Shown here: one piece after another, positions 3,481-12,354 of the stretch
Position numbering within the stretch: the first letter of the stretch is position 1
Layout of the letters: each line of letters starts with the position of its first letter
Virus record (IMG/VR): IMGVR_UViG_2541047849_000007
From: a virus
Lineage: Duplodnaviria; Heunggongvirae; Uroviricota; Caudoviricetes
Length of the DNA stretch: 32,016 nt
Direction: 5' to 3' (one strand)
The notes under the pieces: model-generated
The model's input: the letters and a program-made list of their open reading frames with translations, nothing else
What the model was told of the DNA's origin: nothing
Databases searched by the model: none
Program-made: the position numbers and the translations under genes

Positions 3481-3671
3481 TGCGAGTCCTCCCTGTCAGG
3501 GCGGGAGAATTCCATGACGGGCACGTCTGCCGAAAAATGCTGGCTGCAGTACGGGCAGACCAGGGTGACGCGTACCGCAGGGATGTGGTATTTACCGGAC
3601 ATCACGGCGATGGCGCTGTGAAAACGCAGGGCTGTTATATCCCTCTCGCACTGAATACATTTAAATATCAT
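3477..3671 (-). CDS. Small Zn-ribbon-like protein (64 aa)
   Basis: Two CxxC pairs (CIQC ... CPYC). ATG 3669-3671 with GAGGAG RBS. Confidence 0.5.
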   Translation of the reverse strand: MIFKCIQCERDITALRFHSAIAVMSGKYHIPAVRVTLVCPYCSQHFSADVPVMEFSRPDREDSQ

Positions 3672-3768
3672 GATTTAATTCTCCTCTGTTTCCGGCGTGC
3701 AGAAGCCCGCGGCGCTGACGCCGGAATAAAAAAGAAAATGTTTTTATTAAATAATTAACGTGGTGTGT

Positions 3769-4299
3769 TTACTGCACATCCTGCTCAAAAGGAATTATTG
3801 AAAAATCCTCAATGTCGCTTTTAATGGAAATACCGGGAATATTTTTCACGGCCTCTTTTTCATTCAGGATAGCGTCTTTATTTATTTCCTCTTTTACACG
3901 AATAAAGCGCTCAAGCCCCAGACGTCTCAGTAATTCAATAACATTATCCGCCCCACGGATACTGACTGATGGCGGACGGTTTCGCCACTGCACCTCGCCG
4001 GTGGTAAGGTTAGCGAACTTCACCTTCCCGTTGCCGGTCAGTTCATCACGGTGCGCCTCACACCATGTCTGGATACCGGACTGCAGTTCGGCCATGCGTT
4101 TTTTCAGGCTCTCGGTGAGCGGGGCATAACGTGCGGTGATATCGCCAATGGCGTCATTCATTTCTGTTTCAGCCCTGACCAGTTCACGTTGTGCGTCACC
4201 GAGTAGTCTGATTCCCTCAATGACCTCTTCGCGTGTCCCTGGTACCCAGAGTGCCGCTGCGGCCTTGATACGTTTTGCCCCTTTTGTACTTTTTGCCAT
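3769..4299 (-). CDS. gam: Gam-like host-nuclease inhibitor (Mu Gam family)
   Basis: 176 aa with the size, charge pattern and coiled-coil character of Mu Gam. Sits downstream of transposition gene B as in Mu. Confidence 0.65.
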   Translation of the reverse strand: MAKSTKGAKRIKAAAALWVPGTREEVIEGIRLLGDAQRELVRAETEMNDAIGDITARYAPLTESLKKRMAELQSGIQTWCEAHRDELTGNGKVKFANLTTGEVQWRNRPPSVSIRGADNVIELLRRLGLERFIRVKEEINKDAILNEKEAVKNIPGISIKSDIEDFSIIPFEQDVQ

Positions 4300-4326: not shown

Positions 4327-4596
4327 TTACCACAAAGATTCCGGCCACACGACGCGACAGCCGTGCAGTTCGAAAACGCCCTGACGGAAATATCCCCTGT
4401 GGTCATGTCCGGTATACAGATAACAGGCCTTTCCCTGCTCAAGCATGCGCATGCAATGCGCACTCCGGGAAACGCGGATGACAGGTTTGTTACCCCTGAT
4501 GGTGATGCTTTGTACATCCGTGTTCGTCGCCTTAAGCGCCATAATGGCTGACTGCACTTTGCTGATTTGCTGGTTGATACCTGTGGTGGATTTCAT
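4327..4596 (-). CDS. Hypothetical protein (89 aa)
   Basis: ATG 4594-4596 with AAGGAG RBS, immediately after the B stop (TAATAATG). Confidence 0.45.
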   Translation of the reverse strand: MKSTTGINQQISKVQSAIMALKATNTDVQSITIRGNKPVIRVSRSAHCMRMLEQGKACYLYTGHDHRGYFRQGVFELHGCRVVWPESLW

Positions 4597-4598
4597 TA

Positions 4599-5765
4599 TT
4601 AAACTCCTTTGACAACGTCAGCGTTGACCTGTGGAACCCCGATTTCAGCGGCCAGATTCATGGCGGCTATTACCAGGTTACTGACGGCCAGCGGATACAG
4701 CAGGCTGACCATATTTTTACGATGACTTCCCGGATTGCTCAGGCGGGCACGTATGGCATCCACTGCGCTGGCGTCCATAATGTCCGTCAGTTGTTTACCG
4801 GCCCGTTGCAGTTTGAACGTCAGAAATTCTTCAAGGTTATTGTCCAGAGGCAGAAGTTCGACCACCTCACAGCGCTGAACGACTTCACGGACTTCCATAT
4901 TGCGTTCAGACAGTTTTGTCGCCAGTTCCGGCTGGCCAATCAGCACGATGGACAGCAGTTTTTTGAAACCGGACTCCAGCTCAAAAAAGCGTTTGAGGTG
5001 TTTCAGTGTCGGAATGGGCAGACTGTGGGCCTCCTCAATCACCAGAACGTGGCTGAACCCCGCCTGGCTGCTGTCTTTCAGGACGCGATGCAACTGGCGA
5101 AAGCGGGCGTCCTGACTGCGTCTGATGCTTTCCAGTGGTGCGATGGTACTGATAATGGCTTCGGCAATAGCTGCTGCCTTCAGGGTTTTCCCTTTCACAT
5201 CGTTGTCTTCCATAGCGATGATGTATGGCTCGATAACAATTACCGGCGCATTCTCGCGGTTAATACGTTCAGTCAGGTCGCGGCGCAGCGTGGATTTACC
5301 CGCACCGGACTCACCGATGACGGCCATAAACCCACCATGACGGGCTGTCTGGTACAGCGCCTCACGCACGTAGCGAATGTCCGGGGTGGTGAACACATCA
5401 TCAGAACCCTGCATGGCTTCATCGGCGAACGGGTCACGGAAAAGACCAAACGCTTTTTTGGTTGCTGGAAATAACACCTGTTTTTTGAGTAACATATTCT
5501 CTTCCTCACTGAGGCTCGTTTTATCTGTGGTACCCGCTGTACGGGGCGTGGCCGCGCCCTGTACAGCATCAAAACTCTTCGTTGTATCAATCCCCTGACT
5601 TTCCAGCCAGGACGCAAGACGCCGGCGCACTTCTCCGGGGCTGGTGCGGGGCCACGCGTTATGATTCACAATCTGGGCCAGCGTGGCCTCAGAAACATCG
5701 ACAGCTCTCGCCGCCACCGCCTGTGGAATACGGGCCTCTTTCAGTTGCTGCTTCAGTACCAGCAT
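4599..5765 (-). CDS. AAA+ transposition ATPase / target-DNA activator (MuB/TniB-like)
   Basis: Walker A GESGAGKST and Walker B-like VLVIEEAH; N-terminal HTH-like region. Preferred start is ATG 5763-5765 (GAGGAGGG RBS 5 nt upstream) rather than the track start at 5792. Immediately downstream of the transposase. Confidence 0.8.
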   Translation of the reverse strand: MLVLKQQLKEARIPQAVAARAVDVSEATLAQIVNHNAWPRTSPGEVRRRLASWLESQGIDTTKSFDAVQGAATPRTAGTTDKTSLSEEENMLLKKQVLFPATKKAFGLFRDPFADEAMQGSDDVFTTPDIRYVREALYQTARHGGFMAVIGESGAGKSTLRRDLTERINRENAPVIVIEPYIIAMEDNDVKGKTLKAAAIAEAIISTIAPLESIRRSQDARFRQLHRVLKDSSQAGFSHVLVIEEAHSLPIPTLKHLKRFFELESGFKKLLSIVLIGQPELATKLSERNMEVREVVQRCEVVELLPLDNNLEEFLTFKLQRAGKQLTDIMDASAVDAIRARLSNPGSHRKNMVSLLYPLAVSNLVIAAMNLAAEIGVPQVNADVVKGV

Positions 5766-9455: not shown

Positions 9456-9794
9456 ATGATCGGGTTACGTATTAAAGAAGAAAGAGAGCGTCTATCTCTT
9501 ACACAGCAAGGGTTGGCTGATGCTATCGGTGTGGCAAAGAGAACTTTTATTGATTGGGAAAAAGATCGCACTTCTCCTACTGCAGTGCAGTTATCTGCAC
9601 TATCAGAAATCGGTGTAGATGTTTTGTATGTAGTTACTGGGGTGCGGAGTCAGCCTGTTGTTGCACCTTATATGTCACAAGAAAAGAAAGAGTTAATGGA
9701 TGCATTCGACGAGATGAGCCCCGAACAACGGAGGGCAATTCTTGAGGTCGGCAAAGTCTTCATTCAACCCAAACCAAGCAAACTCGCAGGCTGA
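9456..9794 (+). CDS. XRE-family HTH repressor (lysogeny repressor candidate)
   Basis: ATG 9456. Classic HTH_3 region LSLTQQGLADAIGVAKRTFIDWEKDRTSP. Divergent from the early operon. The track ORF begins at an upstream GTG inside ner and is not preferred. Confidence 0.7.
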   Translation: MIGLRIKEERERLSLTQQGLADAIGVAKRTFIDWEKDRTSPTAVQLSALSEIGVDVLYVVTGVRSQPVVAPYMSQEKKELMDAFDEMSPEQRRAILEVGKVFIQPKPSKLAG

Positions 9795-9880: not shown

Positions 9881-9914
9881 CCGGAAAGCACTGTACTTTC
9901 CGGTTATGGCTTTT
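9881..9914 (+). terminator. Rho-independent terminator after repressor gene
   Basis: CCGGAAAG-cactgta-CTTTCCGG (8-bp perfect stem) followed by TTATGGCTTTT. Also sits at the 3' end of the convergent dam gene. Confidence 0.55.
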
Positions 9915-10677
9915 AGAAATTGCAGATCACCAGCTCACGGCGTGGAGTTGATTTGCCTGCCAGACTGTAGTTGATGTTCACTGTCTGTATGTTCAGTCCA
10001 GTGAACACCTCGCGCATCTGCGGGATGTCGTTCACCGAAATTATCATCTTTCCTCTGATGCACCGGGCCAGCTCTGCCAGCCGCGAGTAGTTCCCTTCAG
10101 GAAAATCCACACCATAGCCTTCTGTACCCAGATACGGCGGGTCACAGTAGAACAGCGTGTGCGGACGGTCATAGCGCTCAATGCACTGTTGCCAGTCCAT
10201 GTGTTCTATCACCGTTCTGGAAAGCCGCAGGTGTGCCGCTGACAGTTCTTCCTCGATACGCAGCAGGTTGAAGCGTGGCGGGGATGTGGTGGAGGTGCCG
10301 AAGCTGTGCTCTGCCACCTTGCCGCCAAACGCCTGCTTCTGGAGGTAGTAGAACCGTGCTGCACGCTGGATATCCGTCAGTGTTTCTGTCGGGGTGATCT
10401 GCAGCCATTTGTAGATCTGCCGGCTGACCAGCGCCCATTTGAACTGGCGGACAAATTCTTCCAGATGATGTTTTACCACCCGATACAGATTTACCAGTTC
10501 ACCATTGATATCGTTAATGACTTCGAGCTTACCAGGTGTCTTAAGAAAATAGAGCGCTGCTGCGCCGCAGAACGGCTCCACGTAACATTCATGCGCCGGA
10601 AACAGCGGCAGGATGTGTTTTGCCAGGCGACGTTTGCCACCAATCCATGGAACGATGGGTAATGTCTGCATTTTCAT
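9913..10677 (-). CDS. dam: DNA N6-adenine methyltransferase (Dam/D12 class)
   Basis: 254 aa. Motif I region VEPFCGAAALYF and catalytic motif IV DPPY (FYCDPPYLGTEGYG). Confidence 0.85.
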   Translation of the reverse strand: MKMQTLPIVPWIGGKRRLAKHILPLFPAHECYVEPFCGAAALYFLKTPGKLEVINDINGELVNLYRVVKHHLEEFVRQFKWALVSRQIYKWLQITPTETLTDIQRAARFYYLQKQAFGGKVAEHSFGTSTTSPPRFNLLRIEEELSAAHLRLSRTVIEHMDWQQCIERYDRPHTLFYCDPPYLGTEGYGVDFPEGNYSRLAELARCIRGKMIISVNDIPQMREVFTGLNIQTVNINYSLAGKSTPRRELVICNF

Positions 10678-10869: not shown

Positions 10870-11085
10870 TTATCCGGGGCGATTTTCTGACCTTATCTGG
10901 TCCAGGGCATAAGTGATCCCTTCTGCAAAAACAGAAGTATCAAACTGCTTTTGTATTTCCTGAAAATGAACAGTGGCACGACAGACACTCAGTTCTCCGC
11001 GATGTAACCGGATAATATCTTCCAGAACATTGTTCACTGCTTCGGCACGGCGCTGATGTTCTGTTAACGTTAATCGGGGATTCAT
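10870..11085 (-). CDS. Hypothetical protein (71 aa)
   Basis: ATG 11083-11085 with AAGGAG RBS 7 nt upstream. No family recognised. Confidence 0.5.
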   Translation of the reverse strand: MNPRLTLTEHQRRAEAVNNVLEDIIRLHRGELSVCRATVHFQEIQKQFDTSVFAEGITYALDQIRSENRPG

Positions 11086-11462
11086 GATGCACTCCTTAAA
11101 TGATGATTTTTATGTACTCACCGGCAAAATATTCTGCCGATTACTGAACACGCATCCGGCTCCTCAGGTTTTGATTTATTCTGGTTTTTTCGATATCCCG
11201 GACCAGGTTGATCACGACAGAAAAAGTGCCGGTATTTTATTGATACGCTGATATGGCTTCGGGATAACAGCTATATTCGTTACTCTCAGTTGCTGGCTGT
11301 GGGAGCGGCTGATGTCGTCCTCACGGAAAAAACGCTCTGTCTGCTCAATGCCATGCCGACCTTTCTGCAGCCCCGGCCCGTACCATTTAAAGAGTCACTT
11401 CTGGATGCAGTAAAAACCGGTGAAAATGCAGTCATCGCTGAATGCGTATCCCGGATTATGCG

Positions 11463-12011
11463 TTACGTGTTTAATGAACGTAAGTGAGGTTTATCCGCTG
11501 TCTGCATAATCCCGATAGCCAGTGCGAGGGGAAGCAATTCCGGGGAAACTCTTTCAAACAGCGATTCCCATTCTCCTCTCGCCATCACTCTGTCCAGCCC
11601 GCCCTCCAGCTGCATTTCAGCAATCTTCCTGATTTCCCGGAACAACGCCGCTTTGATCTCTTCATGCTCAGCTTTATTTTCCGGTGTCAGAATGTATTCG
11701 TCGAAGAACCGGGGAGGCTGGTTAACGGGGGGCATGTTCACCGGGATGTGTTCCTGTATCCCGTACTCCGGGGCTGAAAAACATTTTGTTGTCTGACCGG
11801 TGAGTTTGCGTAACACCTTCATGAGTTGCTCCTGAAGCAGCTCATTCGTCCGACAGATACGCTCGTCGTCCACAACTGCGGCATCGACAATGACGCTTTT
11901 TCCAAATTCCTTTTTCACCATCTCTTTTATACGCGTCAGAACGTAACTTTTACCGCTGCCTACAGGCCCGGACACTCTGACGGTGATGGTCGGCTTCGGT
12001 GTGACTGTCAT
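11463..12011 (-). CDS. P-loop NTPase, small kinase-like fold (unknown substrate)
   Basis: Preferred start ATG 12009-12011 (AAGGAG RBS 7 nt upstream), giving about 182 aa. Walker A GPVGSGKS sits about 15 aa from the N-terminus, followed about 25 aa later by VIVDAAVVDDE, as in small nucleotide kinases. Confidence 0.55.
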   Translation of the reverse strand: MTVTPKPTITVRVSGPVGSGKSYVLTRIKEMVKKEFGKSVIVDAAVVDDERICRTNELLQEQLMKVLRKLTGQTTKCFSAPEYGIQEHIPVNMPPVNQPPRFFDEYILTPENKAEHEEIKAALFREIRKIAEMQLEGGLDRVMARGEWESLFERVSPELLPLALAIGIMQTADKPHLRSLNT

Positions 12012-12039
12012 TCTGTATCTCCTTTGTGAGTGATCCAGC

Positions 12040-12354
12040 GTGTATTCTGCATACCCCGAACACGCCTCTCTCTTAACGCGCTTTAAAATCCTCCGCGCCA
12101 CGCTTTTGCCATGCTGTCTCCACACAACAAGGAGACATTTTCATGAAACCATTCACTTCCCTTACCCGGACACCACGCAACTGGAACTGCGCCGTGAGCT
12201 TGATTACCTGGCAGATCGCAAAATGGTGGAACTGGAGAGGAGACCGTCCGGTGACTGGTTTGCCGATCTGAGTCGCCTTGGTGTGGATATTGTGGAATAC
12301 ACCGTGGAATGCGGCCCCGGTATTGCCCGCCCGGAAAAATACTGGAGTGAGTGA
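12040..12354 (+). CDS. Hypothetical protein, start undetermined (possible frameshifted gene)
   Basis: Protein-like reading frame runs to a TGA 2 nt before the terS ATG, but has no in-frame ATG with an RBS. The only ATG with a strong RBS (AAGGAGA, ATG 12143) is in the adjacent frame and gives a 42-aa Trp-rich product. Confidence 0.3.
   Translation: MYSAYPEHASLLTRFKILRATLLPCCLHTTRRHFHETIHFPYPDTTQLELRRELDYLADRKMVELERRPSGDWFADLSRLGVDIVEYTVECGPGIARPEKYWSE
12066..12090 (+). promoter_or_regulatory. Candidate late promoter motif, copy 1 (head of late operon)
   Basis: CTCTCTTAA-cgcg-CTTTAAAATC. Shares the TCTTAA-N4-CTTTAA(A/T)ATC pattern with sites at 23227 and 29577. About 50 nt upstream of the first late-operon RBS. 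Confidence 0.4.

Follow-up and report, generated by a model that had tools for sequence, protein, structure and literature searches.

The 182-aa open reading frame that, with its stop codon, occupies 11463..12011 on the minus strand of the window (the whole stretch of DNA analysed, 32,016 nucleotides) is a real gene of a Mu-like (BcepMu-like) Escherichia coli prophage, and in identity and anatomy it is very probably an uncommon allele, shortened by internal deletions, of PHROG 3787, a mosaic accessory protein of phages. The original prediction of a small, kinase-like P-loop protein was right about the small size of this phage protein and about its P-loop, which is genuine and conserved. The prediction fails on the kinase itself: no kinase model comes near threshold, the conserved unit is about 70 residues long, and Asp43, the Asp after the second strand, is not conserved. 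That the window protein is not a kinase is a conclusion we hold with high confidence. The complete account that we prefer, a deleted mosaic accessory-protein allele together with the mechanism proposed below, falls a little short of an even chance.

The reading frame starts with an ATG at 12011 and stops at 11463-11465, and the ribosome-binding site AAGGAG lies at 12019..12024 on the same strand, 7 nt upstream of the start, which bears out the predicted length of about 182 aa. The start Met is the one common to all homologues; a longer, GTG-initiated reading of 220 aa is possible, but nothing supports it. The identical ORF stands in RefSeq as WP_021537374.1 under the name 'P-loop NTPase family protein'. 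The sole solid match of the protein is to PHROG 3787, whose function is not assigned (E=5.9e-89, 298.6 bits), and this match is split in two separate stretches because the window protein lacks 36 and 29 residues, the alignment skipping approximately profile positions 60-124, where the two deletions lie. The idea of a C-terminal membrane anchor was dropped, since the maximum 19-residue Kyte-Doolittle hydropathy is 1.29, and searches of the literature, which covered E. coli prophages of the BcepMu type, the accessions of the protein and the Ea22 papers, turned up neither functional data nor any mention of a P-loop.

The Walker A motif GPVGSGKS lies near the N-terminus, as originally described, at residues 15-22 (11946..11969, minus strand), and the segment VIVDAAVVDDE, which had also been pointed out, occupies residues 40-50, 25 residues past the start of the motif. 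By itself such a motif is weak evidence, because the loose pattern [AG]xxxxGK[ST] also arises in non-coding frames: when the window is translated in all six frames (64,028 codons), it turns up four times, and two of these lie outside the coding frames. The two instances of the strict pattern GxxGxGK[ST] are both in real genes, namely the ORF discussed here and a MuB-like ATPase. Conservation was assessed among 32 homologues that are 30-50% identical, in which GxxxxGK[ST] is present and conserved and G-K-[ST] is the most conserved feature; by module position, G10 is kept in 31 of 32, G15 and K16 in all 32 and S/T17 in 31 of 32, leaving the G-K-S core invariant or nearly so. Since G-K-[ST] stands out at this level of identity, the motif must be under selection. 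Further conserved positions are E45 (28/32), W56 (28/31) and E69 (25/31), and Glu50-Arg51 of the window protein are matched in 28 and 25 of the 32 homologues, respectively. Asp43 of VIVD, by comparison, is kept in only 12 of 27 family sequences.

When 1.84 billion representatives were searched exhaustively with HMMER, 66 hits came back at E<=1e-3, nearly all of which match profile positions 1-75 only. The conserved unit comprises about 70 residues (the first ~75) and runs from a strand through Walker A, a helix, a short strand, a helix bearing an E-R motif and, after it, a W..P motif to a third strand ending in LEE. As judged from these alignments, PHROG 3787 is a family defined by this N-terminal mini P-loop module, for which Pfam has no model, and the LEE-ending strand looks like a Walker B. 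Against a module profile of 73 positions, built from an alignment made in the present analysis, full-length members score 70-105 bits across positions 1-72; the window protein covers positions 1-49 with 61 bits and lacks the full-length match with E-R, W..P and the terminal LEE strand. What survives of the module is residues 6-51 (11859..11996, minus strand), that is, strand 1, Walker A, helix 1, strand 2 (VIVD) and Glu50-Arg51. A pattern search finds no hhhh[DE] Walker B motif in the window protein, which keeps VIVD alone, with its three hydrophobic residues and the nonconserved Asp43, and the alpha/beta core of P-loop NTPases, in which five or more strands form a parallel sheet, is not seen.

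The anatomy of the allele becomes clear by comparison with the common E. coli form, a 247-aa protein (WP_000194949.1; Escherichia phage PhiKM XRL29432.1) that sits in the same slot and is 86-87% identical to the window protein over the aligned residues. Among complete E. coli genomes about 9% carry the long form, ST131 strains being among the carriers, and the window allele is found in 15 of 499 carrier genomes. The two proteins have in common the start, Walker A, the E-R motif, the Pro-rich linker and the C-terminal helical domain, and they differ by two in-frame deletions on the minus strand. The first, with its junction at 11858..11859, takes away 108 nt (36 aa), and with them the conserved W..P and strand 3 (VIRLEE, Walker-B-like); in the long form, the lost block has a GAGCG direct repeat on both sides. 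The second, at 11834..11835, takes away 87 nt (29 aa), which correspond to the first two thirds of a mobile helical module, PWILPDALHATIAALMTVYD. In all, a third of the conserved module is deleted. The C-terminal helical domain (residues ~100-182, 11466..11714, minus strand), which is preceded by the Pro-rich linker, is the slowest-evolving part of the gene, with a dN/dS of 0.19. The window allele is most likely a weakened form of an oligomeric phosphate- or nucleotide-binding accessory protein, and what activity the allele retains would probably sit in its C-terminal helical domain, which is conserved.

In the BcepMu-like transposable prophages of enterobacteria, a variable accessory slot separates the immunity repressor from the lysis cassette, and it is here that the gene lies. 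The slot is conserved in such prophages of E. coli, Citrobacter and one metagenome; BcepMu itself has other genes there. The 3′ end of the gene overlaps by 25 nt its convergent neighbour, phrog_2266 (11084..11487, plus strand), which encodes 134 aa in relatives and is frameshifted here by a 1-nt deletion between 11217 and 11218. Downstream on the same strand as the P-loop gene are a 71-aa ORF, phrog_4490, with no assigned function (10870..11085, minus strand), and, at the end of this leftward string of genes, a D12-class DNA adenine methyltransferase (9913..10677, minus strand). Methyltransferases are found within about 3 kb of the module gene in several contexts, an observation that is not counted as evidence because the contexts are not independent enough. 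Promoter, terminator and Rfam scans of the region from 9 to 13 kb gave nothing above background.

A defective prophage of this kind invites the suggestion that the ORF is a decaying remnant, already non-functional and simply too young to have been disrupted. In its favour, both deletions cut through conserved modules rather than between them, 5 of about 17 conserved module positions are gone, the allele is rare, and the same prophage carries both the frameshifted neighbour and a 2.15-kb deletion that took the lysis cassette. In addition, the dN/dS of the N-terminal half is 0.5, which is not significantly different from 1. Against this stand the in-frame nature of both deletions, an intact ribosome-binding site and intergenic promoter region, and the pattern of selection: the short-form ORF is intact with identical deletions in two lineages whose proteins have diverged by 16%, and the whole-gene dN/dS is 0.49 (Fisher p=0.02), in addition to the value for the C-terminal domain given above. 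We regard a dead remnant as possible but doubtful, and prefer a weakened allele of the accessory protein.

It is important to stress that the mosaic nature of this accessory protein extends well beyond E. coli prophages. There are stand-alone module proteins of 71-90 aa as well as fused proteins of 200-364 aa with unrelated C-termini, and the stand-alone genes are sharply bounded in six independent contexts. The phages that carry the module include BcepMu-like, HK97-like, Ea22-carrying, virulent and jumbo phages, and its genes are also found inside head, lysis and early modules. The prediction had noted no obvious partner, which stands in so far as no neighbour of the module gene is constant across unrelated phages, but needs amending in that relatives of the window prophage do keep the convergent phrog_2266. 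Fission or fusion can be followed in one case, where the ORF downstream of a stand-alone module (locus L006) and residues 90-128 of a fused Citrobacter protein both match phrog_18255. A fusion of one homologue with a peptidoglycan-binding domain (PG_binding_1) is seen on one contig of 2.9 kb. A search for loci with a narrower alignment recovered 2 loci only, and a 2,018-aa match (P0046) that had been taken for a repeated helical module turned out to be a eukaryotic Ig-repeat protein, and the match to be spurious.

The module also appears in Ead/Ea22-like proteins of the phiV10 type, where a subfamily of it forms the C-terminal domain; both families are mosaics of swappable small modules. In phiV10 p48, Pfam places Ead_Ea22 at residues 3-145 and the module sits after the coiled coil; an ORF of a metagenome-assembled genome shares 46% identity (E=2e-16) with the C-terminal domain and in turn matches the module profile with 97.7% hhalign probability. 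The DUF550 nucleotide hydrolase domain mentioned in the GenBank note for this protein was rejected, as Pfam gives Ead_Ea22 only. The window protein has no match to the Ead_Ea22 region (PF13935), and the module alone is common to it and p48. Lambda Ea22 is a tetramer held by a coiled coil, and its C-terminal domain is different, structurally unique and without a P-loop (PMC10834534). Its pro-lysogenic phenotype is not transferable to the window protein.

What such a module might do can be put forward only tentatively. Because it is too small to form a complete P-loop NTPase or kinase alone, it is probably an oligomer, and the mechanism we propose, with limited confidence, is an oligomer that binds a phosphate-bearing ligand through Walker A. 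The Walker A loop would hold an NTP or dNTP, or nucleic acid, and the variable C-terminal modules would serve in assembly or targeting, with shuffled helical modules, an Ead/Ea22 coiled coil, a peptidoglycan-binding domain or nothing at all as the partner. The window allele would, at best, bind ligand without turnover. A precedent of sorts exists in the P-loop prototypes designed in the Tawfik laboratory, which likewise place Walker A in a very small strand-Walker A-helix context: designed 40-residue strand-(P-loop)-helix peptides bind, as oligomers, NTPs, polyphosphate and ssDNA (bioRxiv 10.1101/2020.07.30.228619). The module profile matches designed proteins weakly (6c2u, a 'phosphate-loop protein', at E=5e-4 and the designed ATPase 9jix at E=3e-4). 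Unlike the laboratory designs, this is a natural phage family with an added conserved E-R, W..P and LEE strand.

Since the module is found in virulent and jumbo phages besides prophages, a prophage defence toxin is less likely than a role that helps the phage during infection, be it in nucleotide or DNA metabolism, in taking over the host or in counter-defence. The toxin reading, in which the gene would be a defence or abortive-infection toxin or a superinfection-exclusion factor, draws on the variable slot beside the immunity region, a classical place for such genes, on the shuffled C-termini and on weak matches to components in PADLOC-DB v2. The best of those matches, to SngB (E=3.8e-4, 17.6 bits) and HerA (E=2e-3), are local to the P-loop, and none is significant; host-defence genes do not usually occur, as the module does, in virulent and jumbo phages and within head, lysis and early modules, and no partner effector is conserved. 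Hence we consider a role in defence improbable.

A lysis-associated regulator acting with the holin/endolysin/spanin cassette has several observations behind it: in all BcepMu-like prophages the gene and the holin gene point away from each other, a Yersinia prophage has a module gene immediately after spanin genes of the LysB/LysC type, and there is the homologue fused to PG_binding_1. Other contexts have no lysis genes, though, BcepMu has a lysis cassette but not the P-loop gene, the fusion is known from that one short contig only, and a cytoplasmic P-loop has no obvious periplasmic role, all of which leaves a connection with lysis very improbable.

As for the kinase, there are likenesses, at sub-threshold level, to the NMP and nucleoside kinases and to polynucleotide kinase (the kinase-GTPase class): an N-terminal Walker A of similar flavour follows a hydrophobic strand, and after it come a helix and a short strand ending in Asp. 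An Asp after strand 2 is also found in shikimate kinase, T4 polynucleotide kinase and zeta-type kinases. Moreover, homologues adjoin thyA/folA and a YfbR-like 5'-deoxynucleotidase, and a depositor's pipeline named one 82-aa homologue a thymidylate/uridylate kinase. When the suggested Pfam search was extended to Pfam, NCBIfam and PADLOC scans of both the window protein and the 247-aa form, only sub-threshold, P-loop-local matches came back. AAA_18 reached 14.1 bits against a cutoff of 29.4 and the guanylate kinase model NF011325 12.6 against 263, and AAA_33, CoaE and Zeta_toxin went unreported even at E<=10. The matches to kinase models span only ~25-40 residues around Walker A, and a family-wide conserved unit of ~70 residues leaves no space in which a lid or substrate-binding subdomain could fit. 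The smallest known kinases of this kind have at least ~170 aa.

The structure comparison that had also been suggested points the same way, as far as the model goes. The AF2 model of the 247-aa form has a pLDDT of 44 and is usable for secondary structure only; it shows no lid or substrate pocket, and past residue ~82 the low-confidence chain is predicted to be helical or disordered. No structural neighbour was found among kinases. A PDB profile search gave weak, Walker-A-local matches to cytidylate, dephospho-CoA, deoxyguanosine and uridine-cytidine kinases, and it matched ABC transporters, UreG, midasin and PilT equally; because the matches are confined to Walker A and spread over many unrelated classes, the module is not placed in any NTPase class. 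With no lid, no NMP or acceptor subdomain, no strands 4 and 5 (which stand-alone proteins of 71-90 aa could not hold), no conserved acceptor-activating Asp after strand 2, and in the window allele no strand 3 either, a small nucleotide, nucleoside or polynucleotide kinase acting on nucleotides or nucleic acid has next to no likelihood.

The statement in the original prediction that the protein is not an AAA+ motor has held up, with the AAA+ models below their cutoffs (AAA_35 19.5 vs 27, AAA_22 15.9 vs 27), and the same is true of the KAP, STAND and ABC models (KAP_NTPase 15.5 vs 20, ABC_tran at most 18.2 vs 25). The best sub-threshold sequence matches are to the nucleotide-binding domains of ABC-type ATPases (ABCB1/ABCB19, 26 bits); they begin at Walker A, span the helix and end at an 'IDG.d'-like strand. 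Some database entries carry the name 'ABC transporter ATPase'. In contrast to those domains, the window protein is one third of their size and has no LSGGQ signature, Q-loop or Walker B hhhhDE.

The window gene itself matters little: the allele is rare and damaged, the accessory gene to which it belongs is uncharacterised, and the prophage that carries it is lysis-defective. The interest lies in the family, a swappable Walker A unit with neither a Pfam model nor a structural neighbour. On a bolder reading, which we think unlikely but worth stating, the ~70-residue module would be a natural, autonomous minimal P-loop domain that forms oligomers binding, and perhaps hydrolysing or sequestering, nucleotides or nucleic acids, and that many types of phage use, either by itself or joined to targeting modules, for nucleotide metabolism or as a nucleotide 'sponge' or decoy against the host. 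If so, it would be, to our knowledge, the smallest natural family of P-loop proteins, and the window gene, with its half module, would be a natural variant marking the dispensable parts. Given the share of complete E. coli genomes that carry the long form, material for testing is easily had. Should oligomers of the module bind nucleotides, the family would be a natural counterpart of the minimal P-loop prototypes with which the origin of NTPases is modelled, as well as a candidate for a new class of small effectors in phages.

The P-loop gene of the window runs on the minus strand from an ATG at 12011 to a stop at 11463-11465 and encodes 182 amino acids. The sequence AAGGAG lies 7 nt upstream of this ATG on the same strand, the start Met aligns with that of the homologues, and the RefSeq entry for the identical ORF (WP_021537374.1) is named "P-loop NTPase family protein". 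The two motifs cited in the original prediction, GPVGSGKS and VIVDAAVVDDE, are indeed there, at residues 15-22 and 40-50. Taken alone, a Walker A motif is weak evidence, and a six-frame translation of the whole window holds four occurrences of the loose pattern, two of them in non-coding frames. The motif of this ORF is meaningful because G-K-[ST] varies little or not at all among 32 homologues of only 30-50% identity.

This conserved Walker A belongs to an autonomous N-terminal module of ~70 residues, found in proteins of mosaic architecture. When 1.84 billion representative proteins were searched exhaustively with the family profile in HMMER, 66 were returned at E<=1e-3, nearly all aligned to profile positions 1-75 only, and the matches include both stand-alone proteins of 71-90 aa and proteins of 200-364 aa whose C-termini are mutually unrelated and contain no Pfam domain. 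The module opens with strand 1, G-P-x-G-x-G-K-S, a helix I-E-x-x-L-x-x-E-[FY]-G and a short strand 2, and continues with an E-R helix, a W and a P, and a strand 3 that ends in L-E-E; the E of E-R is kept in 28 of 32 sequences, the W in 28 of 31 and the second E of L-E-E in 25 of 31. To judge from how P-loop NTPases are generally built, the LEE strand resembles a Walker B. The module has neither a Pfam model nor a structural neighbour, so the family constitutes a new form of the P-loop kind.

A small nucleotide kinase, as the layout had been read at first, is not what emerges. Searches of the 182-aa protein against Pfam, NCBIfam and PADLOC gave sub-threshold matches only, confined to the P-loop (AAA_35, KAP, PhoH, UreG, guanylate kinase, SngB and HerA); the protein shows no features of a kinase and belongs to no kinase, AAA+, KAP, ABC or known defence family. 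Its likeness to kinase-GTPase-class NTPases is to their N-terminal third, and it also resembles designed P-loop prototypes. With a shallow family alignment, the AF2 model of the 247-aa form of the protein (e.g., WP_000194949.1; pLDDT 44) has strands at 8-14, 41-44, 69-75 and 80-82, helices only thereafter, and a disordered Pro-rich linker. For the isolated module, modelled with 32 diverse sequences, the best model reached pLDDT 88 and pTM 0.73 (the other four, 61-76), and in this best model DSSP assigned no strands, only helices 16-34 and 40-49. Given this outcome, a monomeric kinase-like or NTPase-like fold is not supported by the modelling; the strands of the module may pair between subunits, or the AF2 model may be wrong.

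The sole solid family match of the window protein is to PHROG 3787, which has no assigned function (E=6e-89), and it is split in two, with the middle of the 242-position profile left uncovered. Among 23 close relatives in a 90%-clustered protein database, nearly all from E. coli, 247 aa is the common form; in alignment, the 182-aa protein lacks 36 aa after Arg51 and another 29 aa after Leu59. The gene is present in 499 of 5,426 complete E. coli genomes and takes the short form in only 15 of the 499. As aligned, then, the window gene is a deletion allele of PHROG 3787. Its product matches positions 1-49 only of the 73-position module profile, at 61 bits vs 70-105 bits for complete members, so that W..P and the LEE strand are gone from it. 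The second deletion takes two thirds of a helical module of ~35 residues (W.LPDA.HA.IAAL..LYDQ.L..ELRK), leaving its last 13 residues alone (residues 60-72). This helical module is mobile: further family members end with it, as do phage proteins without a P-loop, and P0059, P0061, P0025 and P0029 carry it at their C-termini.

A transposable E. coli prophage of BcepMu-like type (Bcepmuvirus) makes up the window, with a DDE transposase and a MuB-like AAA_22 ATPase on the minus strand, an HTH repressor at 9456-9794 and, on the plus strand, a Mu gp27-like homologue of the terminase small subunit, a 507-aa ORF that occupies the place of the large terminase subunit, a Mu-type portal gene and the tail genes. 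The P-loop gene, a 71-aa phrog_4490 ORF and a D12-class Dam methylase form, in that order, a leftward string which in relatives stands back-to-back with the holin gene at their starts. The slot of the P-loop gene is a variable accessory one, since a Citrobacter braakii prophage has a 291-aa homologue in the equivalent place, a metagenomic BcepMu-like phage an 88-aa stand-alone homologue, and BcepMu the unrelated genes gp18-20. The convergent phrog_2266 gene (11084-11487, plus strand), whose 3′ end overlaps that of the P-loop gene by 25 nt, is frameshifted by a 1-nt deletion between 11217 and 11218; it is intact, at 134 aa, in ST131 strain CU568-3 (WP_000972292.1), in L012, a locus of the other short-form lineage, and in other relatives. 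The start codons of phrog_2266 (plus) and the 71-aa phrog_4490 ORF (minus) share 2 nt (CATG, 11084-11085), which leaves no intergenic promoter space between the two genes. The arrangement suggests that transcription of the leftward string and of phrog_2266 may be mutually interfering or antisense. L012 has two paralogous phrog_2266 genes (3525-3929 and 4393-4770) and ~630 bp between the 71-aa ORF and dam that are absent from the window.

Relative to otherwise 100%-identical E. coli prophages, the window is missing 2,153 bp at a junction near 12162-12166 (~12144-12170), which was found in none of the 5,426 complete E. coli genomes. Within the block are the holin gene minus its first ~7 codons, the genes for an SLT endolysin and an Rz-like protein (the latter annotated "MreC-domain"), one more ORF and the 5′ portion of the ORF that follows it. 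Because holin, endolysin and Rz-like gene are lost, this prophage copy should be lysis-defective.

Several observations count for the window allele being alive: both deletions are in frame (108 nt and 87 nt), a second lineage that is 84% identical (P0002) shares both deletions and keeps its ORF intact, and dN/dS between the two short-form lineages is 0.49 over the whole gene (Fisher p=0.02), 0.19 in the C-terminal domain and ~0.5, not significant, in the N-terminal half. Against it count the deletions themselves, which break through modules and not at the boundaries between them, the rarity of the short form, the frameshifted phrog_2266 and the 2,153-bp loss. These patterns suggest that the protein is probably still made, with selection mainly on the C-terminal helical domain, and that the P-loop module of this allele, judged by its sequence, is crippled. 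Between window 11463-12011 and L012 3001-3549, dS is 0.27 over codons 1-100 and 0.055 over codons 100-182, a five-fold gap that indicates recombination within the P-loop gene. In itself, the window gene is nothing out of the ordinary: a hypothetical gene, and a damaged one.

The original prediction saw no obvious partner, and this holds for the module at large, which has no constant neighbour among the loci compared and occurs in phages of both virulent and temperate lifestyle, whether in early, head or lysis regions. In a Yersinia mollaretii HK97-like prophage (L003), a 71-aa protein lies directly 3′ of LysB/LysC-type spanin genes and ahead of an HNH-terminase; in virulent Vibrio phage 1.101.O (L010, 2070-3763), an 82-aa protein (59.7 bits) is flanked by thymidylate synthase and DHFR; and on an early-region contig (L017, 3052-3857), the stop of a 74-aa gene overlaps the start of a YfbR-like 5′-deoxynucleotidase. 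Further members are an 89-aa protein upstream of an NAD-dependent ligase (L013, a 79-kb contig), an 87-aa protein flanked by a MuF-like gene and scaffold/capsid genes (L015, a short contig with phage head genes), and, on one 2.9-kb contig only (L020, 1919-2398), a 159-aa fusion with the peptidoglycan-binding domain PG_binding_1 (P0083) that lies upstream of a gene for a VWA-domain protein. The early region of the metagenomic siphovirus MW202423.1 (L021, 2980-3228) encodes an 82-aa homologue with 48% identity to the Yersinia protein; the depositor's automatic pipeline named it "bifunctional thymidylate/uridylate kinase kinase", for which 82 aa is far too short. Module and C-terminal partner can be separate polypeptides, as a fission/fusion pair illustrates: they are overlapping ORFs of 88 and 161 aa in a BcepMu-like phage (L006, 8001-8749) and are joined in one 291-aa protein in Citrobacter braakii (L007, 5986-6861), phrog_18255 being matched by the downstream ORF of the former and by residues 90-128 of the latter.

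In Ead/Ea22-like proteins (phiV10 p48, L009 2024-2722; D6; others), the C-terminal domain belongs to a second subfamily of the module, which also includes APC_JM3.2 and BcepC6B gp37 and is embedded in larger proteins, such as RSL2 ORF127 (L022, 1994-3136), of Ralstonia and Burkholderia jumbo phages of ~225 kb. This subfamily is tied to the main family by an ORF of a metagenome-assembled genome, which matches both the phiV10 domain (46% identity, E=2e-16) and the module profile (97.7% hhalign probability). The publications on Ea22 that were consulted make no mention of a P-loop.

As to function, we infer that the module, as an oligomer, would bind a phosphate-bearing ligand, and that the variable C-terminal modules would supply assembly or targeting. 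Oligomeric binding is plausible because designed strand-(P-loop)-helix peptides of 40 residues, in oligomeric form, bind NTPs, polyphosphate and ssDNA (bioRxiv 10.1101/2020.07.30.228619), because in Ea22-like proteins the module sits, as a fusion, behind a coiled-coil region, lambda Ea22 being tetrameric (PMC10834534), and because a monomer is too small for a complete fold. Two independent contexts, thyA/folA and the YfbR-like gene, hint at nucleotide metabolism, and they are too few to rely on. One speculative reading, which we consider rather unlikely, sees in the module a minimal P-loop domain of natural origin that serves as an oligomeric nucleotide binder or sponge. That virulent and jumbo phages carry the module favours a role during infection over one in prophage defence.
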